This document shows, piece by piece, positions 1,058 through 52,240 of a stretch of 64,000 nucleotides of DNA; the first letter of the stretch is position 1, and every line of letters starts with the position of its first letter. Position numbers and translations under genes: made by a program. The notes beneath the pieces are model-generated. The model was given only the letters and a program-made list of their open reading frames with translations. It had not been told where the DNA came from and did no database searches. Source of the DNA: Minisyncoccota bacterium (GTDB lineage: Bacteria > Patescibacteriota > Minisyncoccia > Phycocordibacterales > Zambryskibacteraceae); assembly GCA_036517475.1 (NCBI GenBank), contig DATDVZ010000009.1:14524-78523 (forward strand), given 5' to 3'.

Positions 1058-1363
1058 ATGGACTCAACTGATTTGATTGCTGAACTAGAAAAGCAACTTA
1101 AGGCTCTTGGTTTACCGACCAACCCACATGATATCATCGGCCAGCTTTTCCGTTTTGAATGCAAATTGTATACTGAATCGCATATTCTAATTGGACGTAT
1201 TCTTGGTATAGATTTCAGGCCTGGCACTCTTAGACTTCAAGTTTCCAATACTACTGTCGGTCTTTTCACACTCATTGCCATCTACTACGAGGGTGGAAAA
1301 TGGGCTTCATTTATTAAGGCATACAGACATGGTTTCCATGAAGGAAAGTTTCAACTCCTCTAA
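1058..1363 (+). CDS. Hypothetical protein (101 aa)
   Basis: ORF with an AGGAGG-like SD (ggaggaataATG), followed by the rho-independent terminator at 1370-1395. Confidence 0.5.
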   Translation: MDSTDLIAELEKQLKALGLPTNPHDIIGQLFRFECKLYTESHILIGRILGIDFRPGTLRLQVSNTTVGLFTLIAIYYEGGKWASFIKAYRHGFHEGKFQLL

Positions 1364-1395: not shown

Positions 1396-1446
1396 TAAAC
1401 TTTTAATACAAACGTTTTAATTTAAAATTTAATTTAAACTCCATTT

Positions 1447-1480
1447 GTAAACATTTTATACGATCGTATAGAATGTTTAC
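1447..1480. promoter_or_regulatory. 34-bp palindrome gtaaacattTTATACGATCGTATAGaatgtttac (operator-like); first of three copies of this family
   Basis: Near-perfect dyad symmetry. The core TATACGATCGTATA recurs at 44718-44749 and 45280-45319. Confidence 0.6.
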
Positions 1481-1540
1481 ATTGCATCTTTATTCCCCAT
1501 TCGTCATTCATCACTCGCTACTCGTTATTCGTCATTCCCT

Positions 1541-1625: not shown

Positions 1626-2639
1626 TCATCGCTTAGCAATAATGCTCTTTTTATATGTGTCTAAGTGCTCCAATGCAATTCCAGTTCCTCTAGCTACACA
1701 ATATAAAGGCTCTTTTGCAAGGACTGCCTTTACTCCAGTTCGGCGAAAAACTAATTCTGGAAAATTCGGAAGCTGTGATGTGCCTCCTGTCATAATAATT
1801 CCCCGATCAATTATGTCAGAAGAGAGTTCCGGCGGAGTATCCTGTAGAACATCTTTAATGGCTTTTATAATTTCCCGCAATTCCCTGCTAATTGCCTTTA
1901 CCACTTCATTGGTCTTTATATCCACCGAGCGCGGAAGCCCAAGTACATAGTCCCTGCCTTTAATAGTCATTGTAAGCTCCTCATCAAGAGGTATAGCTGA
2001 ACCTATTTTAATTTTAATTTCCTCCGCTGTCCTATCGCCTATTGCCAAGTTATAAGTTCTTTTAATATGATCTGCTATTGCAGAATCAATTTTATTCCCG
2101 GCAACTTTAACAGAAGTTGATGCCACTATCCCACCAAGCGATATTACTGCAACATCCGTTGTTCCTCCTCCAATATCAACAATCATATGTCCTATTGGTT
2201 CATGAATAGGAATACCGGCGCCAATTGCAGCCAAAATCGGCTCTTTGACAACATAAGCGCTTTTTGCTCCCGCTTTTATCGCCGCCTCTACCACGGCGCG
2301 CCTCTCTGTTGAAGTGACTCCTGCTGGAACAGAAATTAAAACTTCTGGCTTGGCAATACTCCATTTGCCCAAAGATTTATTTATGTAATAGCGTAGCATT
2401 GCCTCGGTTACCCTGTAGTCTGCAATTACTCCGTCTTTCATTGGTCTGTAGGCAACGATTGAATCGGGAGTCTTGCCTATCATTTTCTTAGCATCAAGCC
2501 CGATTGCCAGAATTTTATTGTCCTCCTCTGAAATAGCCACAACGGACGGCTCGTTTAGAACAATCCCCTTTCCGGGAACGAATACCAATACAGAGGTTGT
2601 GCCCAAATCAATCCCTAATTTTTTAGACAGAATAGCCAT
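1626..2639 (-). CDS. mreB: Rod-shape-determining protein MreB (actin homologue)
   Basis: 337 aa. The GIDLGTTS phosphate-1 motif, the DIGGGTTD adenosine/phosphate-2 motif and overall MreB architecture are present. Confidence 0.93.
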   Translation of the reverse strand: MAILSKKLGIDLGTTSVLVFVPGKGIVLNEPSVVAISEEDNKILAIGLDAKKMIGKTPDSIVAYRPMKDGVIADYRVTEAMLRYYINKSLGKWSIAKPEVLISVPAGVTSTERRAVVEAAIKAGAKSAYVVKEPILAAIGAGIPIHEPIGHMIVDIGGGTTDVAVISLGGIVASTSVKVAGNKIDSAIADHIKRTYNLAIGDRTAEEIKIKIGSAIPLDEELTMTIKGRDYVLGLPRSVDIKTNEVVKAISRELREIIKAIKDVLQDTPPELSSDIIDRGIIMTGGTSQLPNFPELVFRRTGVKAVLAKEPLYCVARGTGIALEHLDTYKKSIIAKR

Positions 2640-8600: not shown

Positions 8601-9032
8601 TTGTTTTACAAAATTATATCGGGTAAAAAAATGAAAAAAATAATTTCTTCACTGCTTATCGCCTCAGTATTAACTGTTGGTTTACCAGCTCAAAATGCGC
8701 ACGCCCTTACTCGTAATGAAGTAGTAGCGATTGCGCCAGCCCTTAGCATCGCTCTATCACAGATGCTAGTTGTCCTAAATCAAGAACAAATAAAAATGCA
8801 GCAAGAAAATATGACCCTTGCCCAAGCTTCAATTTCATTAAGTTTGGCTTCAACCAGACTTAACCAAGTCAAGGATAGCGCCACTGAAAGCGATCTCCAA
8901 TCAATTTGGAATATTCTGCAACCGGTAAAATTACAAGTTGATGTAATTGCTCAAAGACGCGCCGCATTCAGTGCAGCCCTTGATAAGATTGGTGTAATAC
9001 TTGTAACAATTACTAATGGGATCAGTTCTTAA
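8601..9032 (+). CDS. Hypothetical secreted protein (signal peptide; probable start at MKKIISS, about 8631)
   Basis: N-terminal signal peptide KKIISSLLIASVLTVGLPAQNAHA. The hairpin aaccttgcaa-gtta-ttgcaaggtt plus T-run follows the stop. Confidence 0.55.
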   Translation: MFYKIISGKKMKKIISSLLIASVLTVGLPAQNAHALTRNEVVAIAPALSIALSQMLVVLNQEQIKMQQENMTLAQASISLSLASTRLNQVKDSATESDLQSIWNILQPVKLQVDVIAQRRAAFSAALDKIGVILVTITNGISS

Positions 9033-9417
9033 AAACTAAAAACCTTGCAAGTTATTGCAAGGTTTTTAGTTTTTTACCACTCATTTTTTAGAGATAGTTT
9101 CTTTTCTTTAATAGGAACTTTTTTCTTTTTCTTAACGGTTCTCATCATTGCATTCTTTACCTTCCCCTCTAACCTTGGCGGAACAGTTTTTCGTAATTCT
9201 TTTTCTTTTTTATAATATTTCATAATTATGCAACAGTATAATATTGTTTATTAATTGAATATGAATTAGTAATGTTTAAAATCAGAGAATACTACAGTCT
9301 AGCTGAAATAATCGGATTTGTAATTTCTCTTGCCATAGAAGCCGCCCTGACAAATTAATAAAGATTAAATTCAATGCAATAAAAAACCGCTCATTGGTAA
9401 TTAACGAGCGGAGATAT

Positions 9418-11583: not shown

Positions 11584-11598
11584 TTTTGTAACACTTAC

Positions 11599-11632
11599 AA
11601 CATTCCAACATTCTGCAGAATGTTGGAATGTT
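11599..11632. repeat. 34-bp perfect palindrome aacattccaacattctg|cagaatgttggaatgtt (twin of 30585-30620)
   Basis: Perfect dyad. The second copy differs only by a compensatory C/G to T/A pair. Confidence 0.7.
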
Positions 11633-12347
11633 GTTTCAATTTGACTTTCTCGCAAAGATAGTTAGTCTTTTTTCAGAAACTTGCAGAGAGACGGGTTTGC
11701 CAAGAAAATTATATATTGCTCTGGATACAGAGGCTGCGGGTCCCGAGTTGGGAATTCATAGCACCATTTCAATTGGAGCCGTAGTAATAACTCGTGACTT
11801 GCTTAAATACAGGGATTACGAGGAAAGAGGCTGGGTCTTTTATTCTGAATTAAAACCTCTTTCATATAGATTTTCAGCTGAAGCAATGAAAATTGCATGC
11901 TCTCAACTTGACTGTATTCAGGAAAGCTGGGAAGTCAATCCTGTATTTGTCACAGGGCACAAAGATTTCAAACCTGATTTAGTCCTTAAACTAATGAGAA
12001 AGATTTGTCCGCATCCAGATGCTGTAATGCGACAGTTTTACAATTGGATTCAGGAAAGAAGAGTCGAAGCAAGCGCTGAAGAAATAGTCGGCGTAACTGA
12101 TACTGTATTTTTTGACAGTGGCAGAATAAGTCTACTATTCGGTCAGCATTGCCCATTTCCGTCTCCTTTTGGATGGAGGGGGCTTGATTTGACTTCTCTT
12201 TTCAAAGGGTATACCGGATTGCCGGATGCAAGTTTGTCCGAGCTAGGAGTTCCAGATATACGTGAGAAACCCCATAGGGCAGATCATGACGCAGTTTATC
12301 TTGCACAGATGGCAAGAAAACTTTTGTTTGAAACACTTGGATGGTAA
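11628..12347 (+). CDS. DEDDh-family 3'-5' exonuclease (DnaQ/RNase T-like fold)
   Basis: Exo I motif LYIALDTEAAG. Exo III motif HRADHDAVYLAQM (H-x4-D). Strong terminator at 12346-12384. Confidence 0.7.
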   Translation: MLFQFDFLAKIVSLFSETCRETGLPRKLYIALDTEAAGPELGIHSTISIGAVVITRDLLKYRDYEERGWVFYSELKPLSYRFSAEAMKIACSQLDCIQESWEVNPVFVTGHKDFKPDLVLKLMRKICPHPDAVMRQFYNWIQERRVEASAEEIVGVTDTVFFDSGRISLLFGQHCPFPSPFGWRGLDLTSLFKGYTGLPDASLSELGVPDIREKPHRADHDAVYLAQMARKLLFETLGW

Positions 12348-12384
12348 CCCCAACATCCGCCAAATGGCGGATGTTGGGGTTTTA
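12346..12384 (+). terminator. Rho-independent terminator (AACCCCAACATCCGCCA-aat-GGCGGATGTTGGGGTT followed by TTTAT)
   Basis: 16-bp perfect stem. Confidence 0.8.
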
Positions 12385-30581: not shown

Positions 30582-30584
30582 ACA

Positions 30585-30620
30585 AAACATTCTAACATTC
30601 TGCAGAATGTTAGAATGTTT
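30585..30620. repeat. 36-bp perfect palindrome aaacattctaacattctg|cagaatgttagaatgttt (twin of 11599-11632)
   Basis: Perfect dyad centred on CTGCAG. Sits between convergent genes (29717+ and rpoD-). Confidence 0.7.
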
Positions 30621-31814
30621 TTAGTATCCGCGCAAGCGATTTATCTTCTCGTGTTGTCGGATTTTTTCATGTGCCTTTGCTTCAATCTGGCGGATTCTCT
30701 CACGAGTAACACCGAATACTTTACCTACTTCTTCAAGAGTGTGAGTATAGCCATCAGTTAGCCCGTGTCTCATTTCAAGAATTTTTCTCTCTTTTGGCGG
30801 TAGGTCAGTTAAAATTTCCTTGACTTGATCGGCAATAATTCGATGAGAGGCTTCCTGATCTGGAGAAAGGATTTTATCATCAGGGACAAAATCCCCAAGT
30901 TTGCTTTTCCCATCATCATCATCTCCCACCGGTGTCTCAAGCGAGACTGTGGCCTGATCAATTTTTTCAATATTATAAATTTTTTCTACTTCCAAATTCA
31001 TTTCAACAGCAATTTCTTCCGGCAGAGGGTCTCTGCCTAAATCCTGCGTGAGTCTTCTTACGACTTGCTTGTATTTGGCAATTGTTTCAACCATGTGCAC
31101 CGGCACCCTGATTGTGCGGGACTGATCAGCCAAGGCTCTGGTTATCGCCTGTCTTATCCACCATGTCGCATAAGTTGAGAATTTAAAACCCTTTGTCCAG
31201 TCAAATTTATCAACCGCCTTGAACAACCCCAGGTTTCCTTCTTGAATCAGATCAAGAAGGGTCAGATCTGGGCTTCTACCGACATATTTTTTGGCAATTG
31301 AAACAACCAATCGCAAGTTGGCCCGGGCCAGAAGATTTTTTGCTTCTTCATCCCCTTTTTCAATCCTTCTAGCAAGTTCTTTCTCCTGCGAGCCGGCAAT
31401 GAGGGGGTACTGGCCAATCTCTTTGAGGTACATTTGGATAGAATCATAGGATGAATCACCTTTGTACTCGTATTTTTTGCCCAGTAAATCTTCTTTTTCA
31501 TGAGGCATCTCCAAAAGCCCGCCACCTTCTAAAATATCAATACCGGCTCTATTTAATTTTTCATATAAATCCTCTAGAAAAAAAATATCCTCCTCAATAT
31601 TGGGAAATTCCTTCAAAATCTCATCATATGTGACAAAACCTTTTTCTTTGCCTTTTAAAGTCAGACGATCAACTTTAGAATCAACTTCCCCAAGTTTAAC
31701 ACTTGCTGGTTTTTTTAATTTTGGAAAAACTTTCTTTACTAAAGCTTTCTTTGGTTTTTTCAAAGGTTTGCTCTTTTTTATTTTCCTTACCTTTGTTTTT
31801 TTAATTTTTTTCAT
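30621..31814 (-). CDS. rpoD: Primary RNA polymerase sigma factor (RpoD/SigA) with Lys-rich N-terminal extension
   Basis: Regions 2-4 are conserved, including DLIQEGNLGLFKAVDKFD, TYATWWIRQAITRA and the 4.2 HTH. Confidence 0.93.
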   Translation of the reverse strand: MKKIKKTKVRKIKKSKPLKKPKKALVKKVFPKLKKPASVKLGEVDSKVDRLTLKGKEKGFVTYDEILKEFPNIEEDIFFLEDLYEKLNRAGIDILEGGGLLEMPHEKEDLLGKKYEYKGDSSYDSIQMYLKEIGQYPLIAGSQEKELARRIEKGDEEAKNLLARANLRLVVSIAKKYVGRSPDLTLLDLIQEGNLGLFKAVDKFDWTKGFKFSTYATWWIRQAITRALADQSRTIRVPVHMVETIAKYKQVVRRLTQDLGRDPLPEEIAVEMNLEVEKIYNIEKIDQATVSLETPVGDDDDGKSKLGDFVPDDKILSPDQEASHRIIADQVKEILTDLPPKERKILEMRHGLTDGYTHTLEEVGKVFGVTRERIRQIEAKAHEKIRQHEKINRLRGY

Positions 31815-43055: not shown

Positions 43056-43263
43056 TTCGGTTTTTTATTAACAGAAAATCCCGCTTAAGCGGGATTTTCT
43101 GTTAATAAACGAGAACTTTAATTTTTTCACAATTAGCGTAGTTACAATTACAAATTACGATTTTTTTAGCAAAATTCAACTGTTTGACGAGCATGCGGGC
43201 AGTTTCAAATTTTGCGTTAAAAAATGAGTTAATTTGTTTGTAACGAAGCGTTACGTGAAAAAA

Positions 43264-43656: not shown

Positions 43657-44181
43657 TTATGCTTTTGATGAATTCTCTGGCGCAGGAGATTCTTCTGGAG
43701 TTTGCTCTACAGGAGTTATTTCCACCCCAGCTTTAACTTCAAGATCTGGTTCGGGAATGGTCATTACTTCTGACTCAATCTCTACTTTTGGAGCTTCGGA
43801 ATCTATTGTGGGTTGTTGGTTGTTTGTTGCTTGTTGTTGGTTTTTAGTTGTTGGTGGTTGGTTACTTGTTGTTGGTTGTGTGTTGTCAGTTGTCTGTTCT
43901 TTAACTGGCGGACTTTTCTTCGGTAATACGTTTATCTTTTTACCCTCGATAATGTTGTGGCTTATGAGAAGATTGTGAACTGTGGGAGAAAGTTTTGCCC
44001 CTTTACTTATCCACTCTTTGATTTTTTCGCCTTCAAATTTCTCTGTAGTTTTTCTCGGATCATAAGAGCCGAGTACTTCAACATAACGCCCGCTTTTGGT
44101 GCTGTTCTTAGAATCAGTTAAAACAACCCTGAATGTGGGCTCGTGTTTTCTTCCTGTTCTTTGTAGACGAATTTTTAACAC
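43657..44181 (-). CDS. rpsP: 30S ribosomal protein bS16 with Thr/Gln/Asn/Pro-rich C-terminal extension
   Basis: MLKIRLQRTGRKHEPTFRVVLTDS is the bS16 N-terminus. The about 90-aa low-complexity tail is encoded by (GTTGTTGGTTGT)-like repeats. Confidence 0.9.
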   Translation of the reverse strand: MLKIRLQRTGRKHEPTFRVVLTDSKNSTKSGRYVEVLGSYDPRKTTEKFEGEKIKEWISKGAKLSPTVHNLLISHNIIEGKKINVLPKKSPPVKEQTTDNTQPTTSNQPPTTKNQQQATNNQQPTIDSEAPKVEIESEVMTIPEPDLEVKAGVEITPVEQTPEESPAPENSSKA

Positions 44182-44245
44182 AATCGAAATATCCTAACAG
44201 ATTTAATAAAAAAGAAAAGATCCGAATAAATTCGGATCAAGGAAG

Positions 44246-44584
44246 CTACCAATGAATATATACATGATTTGGAATGAAACGAGATCCACTTTCTTGGATT
44301 TGGAGCTGAAGCCCCCTTCTTTCGGCCCATTCTTTAAGCCCTTTAACCATACATTCGGAACAATAGGTTTGACGCCCGAATTGATGCTCAAATTCGTAAA
44401 CAAGGCTCGAACGCAACCCATAATCTGCCTCCTGCCGCAGTTTGCTAGGAAGTTTGGAGGTAATGCGTCGAACCTCAAAGAGCGCCTGCTCTTCATCCTG
44501 TTTTTTCCTTTCCTGTCGCCTTATTCCCTCATCTGCCAAAGCCCTCCTCGAGATGGTGCGCAATTCCCGCAGTAGCTTTTGCAT
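44246..44584 (-). CDS. Hypothetical protein (112 aa), GC-rich; the antisense ORF 44252-44575 is the less likely alternative
   Basis: Charged composition typical of a real protein on the minus strand. No homolog was recognised. Confidence 0.35.
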   Translation of the reverse strand: MQKLLRELRTISRRALADEGIRRQERKKQDEEQALFEVRRITSKLPSKLRQEADYGLRSSLVYEFEHQFGRQTYCSECMVKGLKEWAERRGLQLQIQESGSRFIPNHVYIHW

Positions 44585-44717
44585 GTAATTTCTCCACTTC
44601 TTAAAATAAAATCGAATCCAGACGTTTTATACCATAAATAAAACTGAAATCCAATAGTAAAATGCGCTTATATAAAGCAAAGAAATTTGATATAAATTTG
44701 ACATAAAATACACATTA

Positions 44718-44749
44718 TTAACATTTTATACGATCGTATAAAATGTTAA
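44718..44749. promoter_or_regulatory. 32-bp perfect palindrome ttaacattTTATACGATCGTATAAaatgttaa immediately upstream of the wHTH/Cas2-like regulator gene
   Basis: Perfect dyad 11 nt upstream of ATG 44760. Probable autoregulatory operator. Confidence 0.6.
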
Positions 44750-44759
44750 TATTCAAACA

Positions 44760-45251
44760 ATGAGTTTAGTGGATGATATTCTAAATGGGCTTTACCAAGG
44801 CAAATACAGGAATTATCGTTTTCTCTTTGATCTTGTTTACAAAAAAGATGAGAATGGAAATCTGAAAATAAAAGAAAATACTTTTCGTAGCACCTTAAGC
44901 AGATTGGGCAAAAAAGGTTTAGTTCAAAATAAATATGGTGCTTGGAAAATTACTGAAGATGGTTTGGAATTCTTAAATTCAAAAAATAAAAAAATAAAAG
45001 AATTCTTTTATGAAAAACCTAGAAATAAAAATATAGTGAGAAATTTGATAGTGTGTTTTGATATCCCAGAAAAAGAAAGAAGAAGTAGGGACTGGCTGCG
45101 TTCAGAATTAATTGGTTTTGGATTTGAACCAATACAAAAAAGTGTATGGTTTGGACCTCCGTTGCCAAAAGAATTTGTTGAGTTTCTTTCTGAAAGAAAG
45201 ATTCTAGATTACATCCGTTTTTTTAAAGCTGAAAGAGAGGATGTTGAGTAG
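44760..45251 (+). CDS. Winged-helix + Cas2-like (PaaX-like) putative transcriptional regulator
   Basis: The N-terminal 90 aa are wHTH-like. The C-terminal LIVCFDIPEKERRSRDWLRSELIGFGFEPIQKSVWFG follows the Cas2/VapD beta-alpha-beta pattern (hhhhYDI...R.+h...L..aG.R.Q.SVF). Flanked by perfect palindromes. Confidence 0.6.
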   Translation: MSLVDDILNGLYQGKYRNYRFLFDLVYKKDENGNLKIKENTFRSTLSRLGKKGLVQNKYGAWKITEDGLEFLNSKNKKIKEFFYEKPRNKNIVRNLIVCFDIPEKERRSRDWLRSELIGFGFEPIQKSVWFGPPLPKEFVEFLSERKILDYIRFFKAEREDVE

Positions 45252-45279
45252 TTAATTTTATTCTTAAATATACAAATCA

Positions 45280-45319
45280 AATGTTAACAAGTTATACGAT
45301 CGTATAACTTGTTAACATT
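45280..45319. promoter_or_regulatory. 40-bp perfect palindrome aatgttaacaagTTATACGATCGTATAActtgttaacatt in the RNase R promoter region
   Basis: Perfect dyad 38 nt upstream of the rnr ATG. Same core as 44718-44749 and 1447-1480. Confidence 0.6.
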
Positions 45320-45356
45320 CTAAAAATTCATTGTTTTGCTATAATTTAAATAAATC

Positions 45357-47297
45357 ATGTCTAAGACCTATAAAGGCTCTATTTCAGTAAGCTCACGGGG
45401 CGTGGGTTATTTTTCGCATCCGGATTTTAAGGAAGATGTAGAAATCCAGCCTGAAAACATCAATACCGCTATGCATAATGACGAAGTTGAAATTGTCATT
45501 GTGCCTGCTCCAACTACCCTTCTGCAAGAAACCGGCAAAATGCCACGAGTTCAAGGCAAAGTAATAAAAATTATAAAGCGCGCCAAAATTCAATTTATCG
45601 GGACGCTTAACGCCTACAAAGATTTCTTTTTCCTAAAACCAGATGACCGCAGATTATACAAGGATATTTTCATCCATTCCTCTAAAGCAATGGGGGCTAA
45701 GGATGGGGACAAAGTTCAAGCGCAAATTGTCGATTGGAAAGATCCTAGTAAGGGGCCGGAAGGAAAGGTTATAAAAATTCTTGGTAAAAAGGGAGTGCAC
45801 GAGGTTGAAATGCAGTCAATTATCCTTGAAAAAGGATTTGAGCTGGACTTTCCGCAAGAGGTTGAGAAAGATGCGCATAAAATTTTGGATGATTCAAAAA
45901 AAGATTTTGATGAGGAAATTAAAAACAGGAAGGATTTCCGTAATGTGCTCACCTTCACCATTGATCCCTCTGATGCCAAGGATTTTGATGATGCACTTTC
46001 ATTTCAAAAAGTAAGTGACGAATTATTTCAGGTTGGAGTTCATATTGCTGACGTTTCGCACTTTGTAAAAACAGCTGGAATAATCGACAAAGAAGCAAGA
46101 CGCAGAGGAACATCTGTCTATCTTGTAGACAGAACAATTCCAATGCTTCCGGAAATTCTTTCAAATGATCTCTGCAGCCTCAAACCCGACGAAGACAAGC
46201 TAACTTTTTCTGCAGTTTTCGTAATTAATAAAAATGCGGAAGTGAAAGAGCGTTGGTTTGGCAAGACAATAATTCACTCTGACAAGCGTTTCACTTATGA
46301 AAATGCTCAAGAAATTATTGATTCAAAAAATGGCGAGTACTTTGAGGAATTGAGTACTTTGAACGATATTGCAAAAATACTGACAAGAAAAAAACTTGAA
46401 TCTGGAGCAATTGATTTTGAAACTGACGAAGTCAGGTTTGAACTTGATAAGGACGGCAAACCATTGCGAGTTTATAGGAAAGAGCGCCTTGACACTCATA
46501 AATTGATTGAAGAATTTATGCTTCTTGCAAATAAAGAAGTGGCTAAATTTATGACTCCGGAGAAAAAAAGTGTCCAAAATGGAGCATTTGTTTATCGTAT
46601 ACATGATCTTCCTGACAAGGAAAAAATCATGAATTTGAGTATTTTTATAAAAGCCCTCGGATACGAATTACATTCTGAAAATGGTGAAGTAACAGCAAAA
46701 GATATAAATAATCTGCTAAAACAAGTTGATGGCAAACCAGAAGAATCTCTCATTAAAACAGCTGCGGTGCGGGCAATGGCAAAAGCGGTTTATTCAACTC
46801 GCAATATTGGGCACTTTGGTCTCGGCTTTCGTTACTACACGCATTTTACTTCTCCAATCAGACGCTACCCCGACTTGGTGGTTCATCGTCTGCTTTTAAG
46901 ATTTCTGACAAAAGGAAAGATTGAGCAGGGTGAAATGATTAAATATGAAAAACTTATGGAGGATTGTACGGATAAAGAAATTTCAGCCGCAGATGCAGAA
47001 CGTACTTCAGTTAAATACAAACAAGTTGAATATATGTTGAGTCATATTGGGAAGGAATTTGATGCTACGGTTTCAGGAGTTTCCGAATGGGGAGTTTATA
47101 TTGAGGAGATTGAGACCAAAGCCGAAGGAATGGTCAGGTTTAAAAACATGACTGACGATATGTACAATCTGGATGAAAAAAATTACGCAGTAGTCGGGAT
47201 GAAAACTAAAAAGAAATATTCTCTCGGAGATAAAGTAAGAGTAAAACTTACAGATGCGGATCTTGATCGCCGAACCCTAGACTTTATTTTCGTTTAG
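45357..47297 (+). CDS. rnr: Ribonuclease R (RNB family 3'-5' exoribonuclease with cold-shock and S1 domains)
   Basis: RNB catalytic region (TIDPSDAKDFDDALS, the four-Asp motif). C-terminal S1 domain and N-terminal OB folds. Confidence 0.92.
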   Translation: MSKTYKGSISVSSRGVGYFSHPDFKEDVEIQPENINTAMHNDEVEIVIVPAPTTLLQETGKMPRVQGKVIKIIKRAKIQFIGTLNAYKDFFFLKPDDRRLYKDIFIHSSKAMGAKDGDKVQAQIVDWKDPSKGPEGKVIKILGKKGVHEVEMQSIILEKGFELDFPQEVEKDAHKILDDSKKDFDEEIKNRKDFRNVLTFTIDPSDAKDFDDALSFQKVSDELFQVGVHIADVSHFVKTAGIIDKEARRRGTSVYLVDRTIPMLPEILSNDLCSLKPDEDKLTFSAVFVINKNAEVKERWFGKTIIHSDKRFTYENAQEIIDSKNGEYFEELSTLNDIAKILTRKKLESGAIDFETDEVRFELDKDGKPLRVYRKERLDTHKLIEEFMLLANKEVAKFMTPEKKSVQNGAFVYRIHDLPDKEKIMNLSIFIKALGYELHSENGEVTAKDINNLLKQVDGKPEESLIKTAAVRAMAKAVYSTRNIGHFGLGFRYYTHFTSPIRRYPDLVVHRLLLRFLTKGKIEQGEMIKYEKLMEDCTDKEISAADAERTSVKYKQVEYMLSHIGKEFDATVSGVSEWGVYIEEIETKAEGMVRFKNMTDDMYNLDEKNYAVVGMKTKKKYSLGDKVRVKLTDADLDRRTLDFIFV

Positions 47298-47546: not shown

Positions 47547-48656
47547 TTATAGATTCAACTCAGAAACAACTGGAAGTTCCCTTATAACTGGAGGTCCGGA
47601 AATAGGTTCGGCAGCAATTTCAACTTTCTTTCTTCTTCCTACTTTAATCTTAAGACAAAGCTGTTTTTCTGCCTCCATTATTTGTGAGGCAACAACTTCC
47701 ATCATGGCAGGAGCATTTGGAAGACCATCAGGCAATGATTTCAAAAACGGTCTTGCTCCATGACAAGGAAGACAATAGTCACATTTAGCGCAATGCCTAC
47801 CTACATTCTTGGGAAATGAGGCGGCATTGTGGCTATCTATAAAATGATCAATGGCAAGAAACATCTCCTGAAAATCTCTTTCTTCACGGAATGTGAAAAA
47901 CATTTTGTTTGTCCGTAAATGATACCAGAGAAATCCGACAGGCCACTTACCATGCTTCATTTTGTACAGCCACATGTAGAAAGTGGGTTGGAAATATTCA
48001 TGAAGCTCAAATTGTTGTTTAATCCAATCCTTATCAGTTGGATTTACAACTTTTTCGGCGGGGTCAAATGTGGAGAACTCTGTCTTCAAATCCAGAATTA
48101 CAACCGGCGCATATTCAGGATTAAGTATGCCGTTAATTACAAGTTCAGGTCTTTTTTTTGCTATCCAGTCAAGTGAAACATTGTGGACTTGATCAAAAAC
48201 ACCAACCATCCTGACTTGGGGTTTGTAATTCCATCGATATCTTTGTTCAACTTCAACGGGTGCAGGCCTTCCATTCATCATCTCCCAGTAATTTGAAAGA
48301 CATAACATTTCAATACGGAGAAACTTATCGTCATCATCGGCTGAAGGGTCTATGAGCAGACCCTTCCCTTTAGCGTACTCAAGCTCTCTTTGCCATCTGG
48401 CATAGAAAGCATTAAGCGTACTCCTTTTTGTTCTGAAGAAAAAAGGTCGTCCATCTTTTGTTGGATGATGAATCTGGCGAACATGATCATGAACTGCTAT
48501 ACCACCGAGCCTTGGATAATCAACCGGATTTGGAACATCGGGATTATTTTTCCAAAAAAGTAATCTTGGACATGAAAGAAACATCCTCAAGTCAGAGTAA
48601 CTAACATGAAGAACTCTCCCTCTCTGTCTGGTTTTCCCTGATCTAGGCATTAGCAT
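47547..48656 (-). CDS. Cas4-like PD-(D/E)XK nuclease with C-terminal Fe-S cysteine cluster (DUF83/RecB-family)
   Basis: N-terminal YSDLRMFLSCPRLLFWK motif. Core VFDQVH...VVILDLKTE. C-terminal CAKCDYCLPC, which together with the N-terminal Cys forms a four-Cys cluster as in Cas4/AddB. No cas1/cas2 or CRISPR array nearby. Confidence 0.7.
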   Translation of the reverse strand: MLMPRSGKTRQRGRVLHVSYSDLRMFLSCPRLLFWKNNPDVPNPVDYPRLGGIAVHDHVRQIHHPTKDGRPFFFRTKRSTLNAFYARWQRELEYAKGKGLLIDPSADDDDKFLRIEMLCLSNYWEMMNGRPAPVEVEQRYRWNYKPQVRMVGVFDQVHNVSLDWIAKKRPELVINGILNPEYAPVVILDLKTEFSTFDPAEKVVNPTDKDWIKQQFELHEYFQPTFYMWLYKMKHGKWPVGFLWYHLRTNKMFFTFREERDFQEMFLAIDHFIDSHNAASFPKNVGRHCAKCDYCLPCHGARPFLKSLPDGLPNAPAMMEVVASQIMEAEKQLCLKIKVGRRKKVEIAAEPISGPPVIRELPVVSELNL

Positions 48657-52192: not shown

Positions 52193-52240
52193 AAACCCCG
52201 AGATTGCAATTGCAATCTCGGGGTTTGCCTTTTTATATTC
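52193..52240. terminator. Bidirectional terminator with 14-bp perfect palindromic stem (CCCCGAGATTGCAA|TTGCAATCTCGGGG)
   Basis: Perfect dyad flanked by A-run and T-run. Located between the 51905 ORF (+) and rnc (-). Confidence 0.7.

Follow-up and report, generated by a model that had tools for sequence, protein, structure and literature searches.

The 64,000-nt stretch of DNA analysed here, from a Minisyncoccota bacterium of the Zambryskibacteraceae (assembly GCA_036517475.1, contig DATDVZ010000009.1, positions 14,524 to 78,523 of the forward strand; hereafter the window), contains a gene for a 163-aa protein (44760..45251, + strand) that stands between two long inverted repeats, dyads A and B, of the same design as a third and distant one, dyad C. 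The protein is a two-domain, truncated PaaX-type factor without the effector domain, which we call mini-PaaX, and the succession of dyad, gene and dyad is a cassette that recurs throughout its family. In the reading that we favour, to which we assign a probability of about 0.7, a dimer of mini-PaaX binds the dyads that flank its gene and represses that gene through dyad A. What is new is the family-wide dyad–gene–dyad cassette, with boxes specific to each lineage and an invariant CGATCG centre, combined with a PaaX-type protein lacking the effector domain; a literature search retrieved no paper connecting PaaX with the candidate phyla radiation (CPR) or Patescibacteria, or with Cas2.

The protein was assigned from a domain match, an AlphaFold model and a fold search. 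Residues 97-161 match PaaX_M (PF20803, the central, Cas2-like domain of PaaX) with 52.4 bits against a cut-off of 24 (E 5.6e-14). The Cas2 models barely pass (PF09827, 24.6 vs 23.8 bits; TIGR01573, 25.2 vs 24.5 bits; PADLOC Cas2, E 1.4e-6), and their matches span the first beta-alpha-beta unit alone. On the N-terminal side, the model of the PaaX winged helix, PF07848, reaches 13.5 bits, below its cut-off of 24.8, and winged-helix models match weakly. The AlphaFold model (36 homologues, mean pLDDT 78) consists of a winged helix at about residues 1-76, with the recognition helix at about 39-51 and the wing at 55-64, a disordered linker (77-92), and a beta-alpha-beta-beta-alpha-beta domain, PaaX_M, at 93-163. 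The best Foldseek match of the model is E. coli PaaX (8a39, E 3.8e-4), followed by Rv0674 (3kfw, E 1.4e-3, 20% identity over 166 columns), and in a tblastn search residues 33-158 aligned with annotated actinobacterial PaaX-family genes. The first-pass annotation, made from the letters of the window, had proposed an N-terminal winged helix and a C-terminal Cas2-like domain as in PaaX, and had named structure prediction as a way to check the fold; the PaaX_M score, the model and its best match to PaaX all bear this proposal out. The resemblance to PaaX ends with the second domain. A Pfam search found no PaaX_C in the 163-aa protein, whose chain ends directly after PaaX_M, and the score against the PaaX equivalog TIGR02277 is 21.1 bits, far under the cut-off of 264.55. 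Because the chain stops where the effector domain of PaaX would start, and because its score is so far under the equivalog cut-off, we classify the protein as two-domain.

At E<=1e-3 the family comprises 1569 representatives of 50%-identity clusters. The best-scoring 150 of these are all shorter than 235 aa, nearly all of them being 140-230 aa long; PaaX_M annotation was available, precomputed, for every listed homologue, and the named members belong to Parcubacteria (Zambryski-, Jorgensen-, Lipton- and Nomurabacteria, and Paceibacterota). An identical protein is found on groundwater-metagenome contigs that have the gene order of the window. Two acidic residues of the Cas2-like domain, D101 (within FDIPE) and E104, are invariant among the homologues, and by profile coordinates D101 would sit at about the position of the catalytic Asp of Cas2.

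Dyad A, the putative upstream operator (44714..44753, no strand assigned), was recognized by direct reading of the sequence and has the position and design of the upstream dyads of the homologues. Its sequence is TATTAACATTTTATACGA|TCGTATAAAATGTTAATA, a perfect palindrome over 36 bp (44716-44751) with one mismatched pair when taken at 40 bp (44714-44753), boxes TTAACA and TGTTAA on the outside, and a CGATCG centre at 44731-44736. The 32-bp span annotated earlier (44718-44749) is indeed palindromic, the true perfect span being longer. Dyad B, the putative downstream operator (45280..45319, no strand assigned), is a 40-bp perfect palindrome, AATGTTAACAAGTTATACGA|TCGTATAACTTGTTAACATT, centred on CGATCG at 45297-45302; it begins 28 nt 3' of the stop codon of the regulator gene and ends 37 nt 5' of the ATG (45357) of rnr, the gene of RNase R. 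The ATG of the regulator gene (44760) lies 10 nt past the end of dyad A, and the distances of 11 and 38 nt given previously were essentially right. Dyad C, TGTAAACATTTTATACGA|TCGTATAGAATGTTTACA (1446..1481, no strand assigned), spans 36 bp, has a single mismatched pair and is an orphan. It had been placed in the 3' region of mreB; it actually sits outside this gene (1626..2639, - strand), 145 nt past its stop codon, within the 262-bp gap that separates mreB from a convergent 101-aa open reading frame (ORF; 1058..1363, + strand), and not in a promoter.

The three dyads align without gaps and in register, and have in common the half-site T-R-T-W-A-A-C-A-W-K-TTATACGA. When the window was searched for the 16-mer core, allowing no more than 3 mismatches, 4 matches were found against 0.29 expected, with A, B and C at 0-1 mismatch. 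The pattern TWAACA-N7-CGATCG-N7-TGTTWA, again with up to 3 mismatches, matched 3 times, at A, B and C, against 0.12 expected, and 3 matches were reached in 0 of 100 shuffles. The long, in-register dyads noticed in the first-pass annotation are therefore real.

That the dyads belong to the regulator is supported by its Parcubacteria homologues, which bear similar dyads on either side of the gene. Eighty loci encoding homologues were taken from species-representative genomes, and the gene was callable in 76. With a symmetry threshold of 14 out of 22 positions, used for the counts of presence, an upstream dyad was found at 68 of the 76 loci, a downstream dyad at 61 and both at 58; at loci below the threshold (e.g. 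L011 and L013) the dyad is visible by eye. With a threshold of 15 out of 22, used for the density count, 113 dyads were counted at distances of up to 360 bp from the gene, a space of about 55 kb altogether, compared with 14 in the remaining 617 kb or so, which makes them about 90-fold denser near the gene. The centre of the downstream dyad falls 19-140 nt past the stop codon in nearly all the loci that have one. In the sister species (L093, 64% identity) both dyads are present, and the upstream synteny is kept (Bac_transf, khpA, rpsP, hypothetical gene, cassette). The inner spacers of its dyads are asymmetric, as they are in most relatives; on the sequences compared, perfect palindromy is a feature of the window's species.

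The anatomy of the site was read from a profile of 119 sites (one of them, the downstream dyad of the window, mis-centred by 1 nt), which were chosen by the symmetry threshold and a centre filter, so that the absolute values that follow are inflated and the contrast between positions is not. Positions -17 to -12 carry 0.3-0.6 bit across the family and vary between lineages, but are 92-99% symmetric within a site and 84-97% identical between the two dyads of one locus. The spacer (-10 to -5) is T-rich, with a symmetry of merely 65-71%. Positions -4 to -1 (R-C-G-A) are conserved family-wide, giving the centre RCGA|TCGY, of which CGACCG, CGGCCG and CTATCG are variants. Paralogues of one genome differ in their boxes (loci L030, L032 and L033), which in one Jorgensenbacteria genome read GTTACAA, TTAACAT and TATATCA. 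As for the protein, the mean identity of homologues to the one in the window is 39.5% in the winged-helix half and 63% in the Cas2-like half. A variable N-terminal and a conserved C-terminal domain thus parallel variable boxes and a conserved centre, from which we infer that recognition of the boxes falls to the winged helices and that the dimer core lies over the centre. In addition, because box and centre are symmetric and the spacer weakly so, the site looks like that of a symmetric dimer with specificity boxes, and not like the stem of a hairpin, which would be symmetric throughout. At locus L030 (2846-2980), two dyads with the box TATCACATGAAAACGCGA, unlike the box of the cassette in the same locus, lie 90 bp apart, without an intervening gene, just 3' of a gene for a 665-aa GTPase that, from our own reading of its translation, we take to be lepA-like.

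The position of dyad A is what points to autoregulation. An extended -10 element, TGTTAATAT (TG-T-TAATAT), is predicted from its match to the consensus at 44744..44752 (+ strand); its hexamer TAATAT (44747-44752) falls within the right arm of dyad A, at an offset of +13 from the centre and 7 nt before the ATG. In homologues, the commonest position of a -10-like hexamer at the upstream dyad is +13/+14 from the centre, which falls in the right box, and in most of the close homologues the hexamer stops 7-10 nt short of the ATG; such a hexamer is nearby in 39 of 59 upstream dyads, compared with 20 of 58 downstream dyads. Because dyad A contains the predicted -10 of the gene itself, protein bound there would block RNA polymerase. 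The autoregulated repressor suggested by the first-pass annotation thus gains from the overlap of the upstream dyad with the predicted -10 and from a geometry (offset and gap to the ATG) that matches the commonest one among the homologues, and autorepression by mini-PaaX appears well supported, more so than any other function proposed here. A -10 element 7-10 nt before the ATG implies leaderless mRNAs. Extended -10 elements lie 7-11 nt 5' of start codons, with no Shine-Dalgarno sequence, in the window (44744-44762 and 45337-45359) and at loci L012-L042, which suggests that the mRNAs of the regulator family and of rnr may be leaderless or nearly so.

The mechanism that we propose for this regulation is as follows. 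Mini-PaaX would dimerize through its Cas2-like domain, as PaaX and Cas2 do, and the dimer would bind the 32-36-bp dyad, with the two winged helices reading the outer boxes (TTAACA...TGTTAA), about 27 bp apart from centre to centre, and the conserved dimer core lying over the invariant CGATCG. On dyad A, the protein would extend over positions -10 to about -45 and block RNA polymerase, which would result in negative autoregulation. Dyad B may cooperate with dyad A by looping, or may form a barrier, when bound, where the gene ends, and dyad C would be an orphan with the same specificity, located where two genes converge. The two flanking dyads are 533-846 bp apart from centre to centre (median 614 bp), and a Rayleigh test for a looping phase gave p 0.046 at a period of 10.5 bp only, in a set of related sequences for which four periods were tried. 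A possible second target is a divergent gene for a 112-aa hypothetical protein (44246..44584, - strand), called in all the contigs of the same species and conserved in L093, which starts about 130 nt from dyad A and has a terminator-like hairpin at 44219-44238. The 112-aa protein has no Pfam family, and its counterpart in L093, adjoining rpsP, is 104 aa long.

The closest known system is PaaX itself (E. coli and Pseudomonas; 8a39, 3L09), a phenylacetyl-CoA-responsive repressor in which, as in mini-PaaX, a winged helix is followed by the Cas2-like dimerization domain PaaX_M. The site of E. coli PaaX is TGATTC-N27-GAATCA, and repression by PaaX of its own promoter works through steric hindrance (PMC9493321). 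This site and TTAACA-N20-TGTTAA of mini-PaaX are both widely spaced inverted hexamers, the latter with the addition of the invariant CGATCG, and dyad A resembles a PaaX operator also in that its hexamers overlap a predicted promoter -10. Long dyads had been taken earlier as operators of dimeric repressors in general; the repressor part of this view is supported, and can be made narrower, such a length being typical of PaaX-type regulators specifically (PMC9493321). In contrast to mini-PaaX, PaaX is about 305 aa long and has a C-terminal helical effector domain, to which phenylacetyl-CoA binds. Mini-PaaX differs also in having putative operators on both sides of its gene and in its neighbours: no paa genes are among the genes examined near it, which include rpsP, khpA and rnr, and the homologous loci have housekeeping genes. 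Rv0674 of M. tuberculosis (3kfw), a PaaX-like protein of 234 residues, is also shorter than PaaX, but unlike mini-PaaX it keeps extra C-terminal residues. Compared with the ferredoxin-fold nucleases of the Cas2/VapD type, mini-PaaX shares the first beta-alpha-beta of Cas2 models in its C-terminal domain, but this domain is fused to a winged helix and has PaaX_M as its best family, and there is no CRISPR array in the window.

Two systems with a similar arrangement of palindromes are also relevant. In REPtrons, REP palindromes flank the gene of a RAYT transposase whose product is thought to recognize them, and more copies are found in intergenic regions, at the 3' ends of genes. Mini-PaaX is no HUH/Y1 transposase, there are 3 sites in about 80 kb, and the flanking copies act as independently maintained symmetric sites. 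In Bacillus subtilis, RTP is a small winged-helix dimer with long dyad sites (Ter) beside its own gene, and is autoregulated; it is encoded by a single gene per genome and serves replication termination. Mini-PaaX, on the other hand, has a Cas2-like domain and occurs as several paralogues of differing specificity per genome.

Dyad B is followed in the window by rnr (45357..47297, + strand; TIGR02063, 682 bits, E 9e-205), for which an extended -10 element, TGCTATAAT, is predicted by its match to the consensus at 45337..45345 (+ strand), 11 nt upstream of the ATG. Dyad B ends 20 nt upstream of this element and spans roughly -34 to -73, and all the contigs of the species that reach the locus have the same arrangement. 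One might accordingly see in mini-PaaX a dedicated regulator of RNase R, coupled to RNA turnover, with dyad B as the rnr operator, and the first-pass annotation had indeed suggested that the regulator also controls RNase R. Comparison with other loci makes this improbable. When the RNase R of the window was searched by tblastn against the 80 homologous loci, rnr was found within 5 kb in 3, at distances of 2.8-4.7 kb, and adjacent in none; it adjoins the regulator gene in the window's species alone. The downstream neighbours are varied housekeeping genes (infB, trxB-like, pyrH-like, gyrB) in random orientation (co-directional at 38 loci, convergent at 35), and the downstream dyad is there whatever the neighbour is; where infB follows, it lies far upstream of a separate, conserved promoter-like motif. 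Considering that adjacency to rnr is not conserved, that the neighbours vary and that a -10-like hexamer is nearby in only 20 of 58 cases, the downstream dyad is to be regarded as part of the cassette and not of the next gene. The control of RNase R as a general function was thus rejected. Dyad B adjoins the core promoter of rnr in the window, and to judge from its position it could possibly influence rnr in this organism, as a lineage-specific side effect.

The motif upstream of infB was seen at four loci (L015, L019, L024 and L016) as GGTGTTTTTGC-N-ACA-N-ATTTRTGATAAGGTTA, about 80-130 nt 3' of the cassette, and may be a promoter or leader element. In one contig of the window's species (ANAN16 scaffold_1106, L001, 10598-12533), the gene calls split rnr into two ORFs (107 and 535 aa) compared with one of 646 aa in the other assemblies, which is a frameshift or an assembly error.

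Additional sites are rare. Over the window and an extension of about 16 kb, together about 80 kb, no site besides A, B and C was found, and one scan of metagenomes for a degenerate dyad of 26 nt retrieved just 2 contigs, both of other organisms, one carrying the downstream dyad of a cassette (L092) and one an orphan (L091). The orphan, GTAACATTTTATACGATCGTATAAAATGTTAC (11702-11727), is near-identical and lies between convergent genes on an unrelated contig that looks more G+C-rich by eye; no mini-PaaX gene is present within its 12.8 kb. The orphan dyads were curated by hand, with the removal of two flanking dyads of loci with an uncalled gene, the second palindrome family of the window (see below) and one G+C-rich hairpin. 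About 6 of the curated orphans are in convergent gaps, 4 are co-directional, including two that are 27-32 nt past a stop codon, and 1 is divergent; the convergent share (about 6/11, compared with 25% of intergenic bp, p ~0.03) is a weak enrichment on small numbers. No common functional theme was found in the genes beside the orphans, which from our own reading of their translations are presumably lepA, mnmA, comEC-like, clpB and beta-lactamase-like.

These positions could mean that the main job of the protein is at gene ends, where it would serve as a roadblock or insulator of defined sequence specificity, preventing read-through from one tightly packed gene to the next, autorepression merely setting its level. 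Such a role would account for a downstream dyad that is present in whatever orientation of the neighbour, for the orphans in convergent gaps or shortly past stop codons, and for the lack of a U-tract, which would make termination there dependent on a factor. However, sites as sparse as a few per 80 kb cannot serve the majority of genes, the counts are low, and the other 3'-end palindromes of the window are unrelated in sequence; we therefore regard it as an improbable main function. The same low probability is given to a module complete in itself and more than an autoregulated repressor, whose Cas2-like domain would engage CGATCG and whose protein would work mainly at 3' ends and convergent junctions, either as a roadblock or insulator in these compact and regulator-poor genomes or as a nicking or recombining, low-copy element of the REP/RAYT type.

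The dyads might alternatively be hairpins, that is, RNA 3'-end or terminator stem-loops or DNA cruciforms, to which the protein has a secondary link; dyad B would then end the regulator gene and dyad C the ORF at 1058..1363. All three dyads fold as perfect hairpins, with energies of -15.7 to -21.8 kcal/mol and z scores of -7 to -8.5, and the genome is rich in such structures: 18 long palindromes or hairpins (arm of at least 13 nt, at most 1 mismatch) were counted in the window, compared with 0.8 expected from a first-order Markov simulation. Most of them are at gene 3' ends, with a zero-length spacer and without a clear U-tract (e.g. 43064-43109, a perfect 46-bp palindrome, 52193-52226, 12346-12381 and 9029-9076), and they may be the terminators of this organism. 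Moreover, dyads B and C and most of the orphans are just past stop codons or between convergent genes, and some loci (e.g. L017) have perfectly symmetric dyads that differ in sequence inside one genome. Nevertheless, the upstream dyads sit on the promoter, 5' of a leaderless start, and so would not be transcribed from it; it is mainly the outer box and the centre that are symmetric, as described above, and in the closest relatives the spacers are asymmetric. A generic stem, finally, needs neither an invariant CGATCG nor boxes specific to each paralogue. We consider an explanation by hairpins quite unlikely. An intrinsic (Rho-independent) terminator in particular was rejected: the stems of A, B and C are A+T-rich and no T-run follows them on the plus strand, and at least 6 T in the next 9 nt were found at 5 of 58 downstream dyads compared with 3 of 59 upstream ones. 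The richness of this genome in palindromes may be the reason that the mini-PaaX dyads, imperfect in relatives, are perfect in the window.

A second family of palindromes was noticed in the window. It is a 38-bp perfect palindrome with zero spacer, AACATTCYAACATTCTG|CAGAATGTTRGAATGTT, present at 11597-11634 and 30584-30621 (0 expected), its two copies differing by a compensatory C/T-G/A change, and with a looser relative at 1540-1577. All are just past gene 3' ends, one of them between a convergent gene and rpoD (30621..31814). The family has no CGATCG centre, and the register of its AACATT box differs from that of the mini-PaaX dyads.

Mobility of the cassette is unlikely. A selfish element comparable to REP/RAYT or to att sites, whose Cas2-like domain would nick or recombine at CGATCG and whose orphans would be empty or scarred sites, might be suspected from a gene lying between two copies of its cognate palindrome (100% identical at L055 and L060, one base apart at L045), from the variable genomic context and the several paralogues per genome, from the invariant D101 and E104, from the pair of L030 dyads with no gene inside, and from base composition: the gene is AT-richer than its neighbours at 73 of 76 loci (mean GC 0.38 vs 0.44), and its G+C content at third codon positions (GC3) is lower at 65 of 76 (in the window, 0.23 vs 0.33 in rnr). 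This is nonetheless the least credible of the explanations considered, because synteny is stable in sub-clades (rpsP, hypothetical gene and cassette in the sister species; csd-like gene, cassette and infB in 6-7 genomes), there are no multiple identical copies and the window has a single one, viral contigs (2.9 M) gave 1 distant match and plasmids only full-length actinobacterial relatives of PaaX without the short form, and the protein, in which the winged helix and PaaX_M were the only domains found, showed no recombinase motif of the HUH, tyrosine or serine type. In a comparison of the arms of the flanking dyads (19 positions, window row left out), there were 3.0-3.3 mismatches out of 19 within a dyad and 3.5-4.1 in cross and direct comparisons, contrary to what att hybrids or target duplications would give. 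This origin of the flanking dyads was rejected, cross- and direct-arm likeness being no better than within-dyad symmetry.

Several observations weigh against repression by mini-PaaX as a full account. All that is said on function is derived from position. The invariant acidic residues D101 and E104 could signify more than dimerization, and the symmetry of the spacer, weak as it is, is still above chance (26-43% expected). The placement of the downstream dyad relative to a promoter beyond it follows no consistent pattern, and the orphans favour convergent gaps and 3' ends and are seldom in divergent promoter regions, which a plain promoter regulon would not predict. Finally, the genome is rich in palindromes and A, B and C are perfect or nearly so, and B and C may have a second role as hairpins at gene 3' ends. 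An autorepressor acting at flanking dyads is still the reading that we prefer.

CPR bacteria are mostly uncultivated and their gene regulation is almost unknown, and the cassette offers a testable pairing of a protein family with a DNA site in these organisms. The variable boxes, together with the variable winged helix, would represent a set of possibly orthogonal repressor–operator pairs, which could be tested in E. coli with no need to cultivate the organisms they come from. Flanking operators and orphans at convergent junctions are unusual for a repressor, and could point to looping, insulation or a DNA activity of the Cas2 fold. Mini-PaaX also illustrates how a PaaX-type protein without the effector domain is built.

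As for the surroundings of the locus, a search for defence systems gave just weak Cas2, winged-helix and Csa3 matches, and cas1 is absent among the genes examined around it. Two genes from the regulator, a PD-(D/E)XK nuclease with a C-terminal Cys cluster is encoded at 47547-48656 (- strand; Pfam PDDEXK_1, E 4.8e-10; weak PADLOC match to Cas4, E 2.5e-4), a pairing that is not conserved in homologous loci. Rfam and tRNA scans found tRNA-Asn alone. On the other side of the regulator, the product of rpsP, ribosomal protein S16 (43657-44181, - strand), has a long, low-complexity C-terminal tail rich in Q, T, N and P, whose coding sequence is a 7/14/21-nt tandem repeat (43806-43898; plus-strand TTGTTGG).

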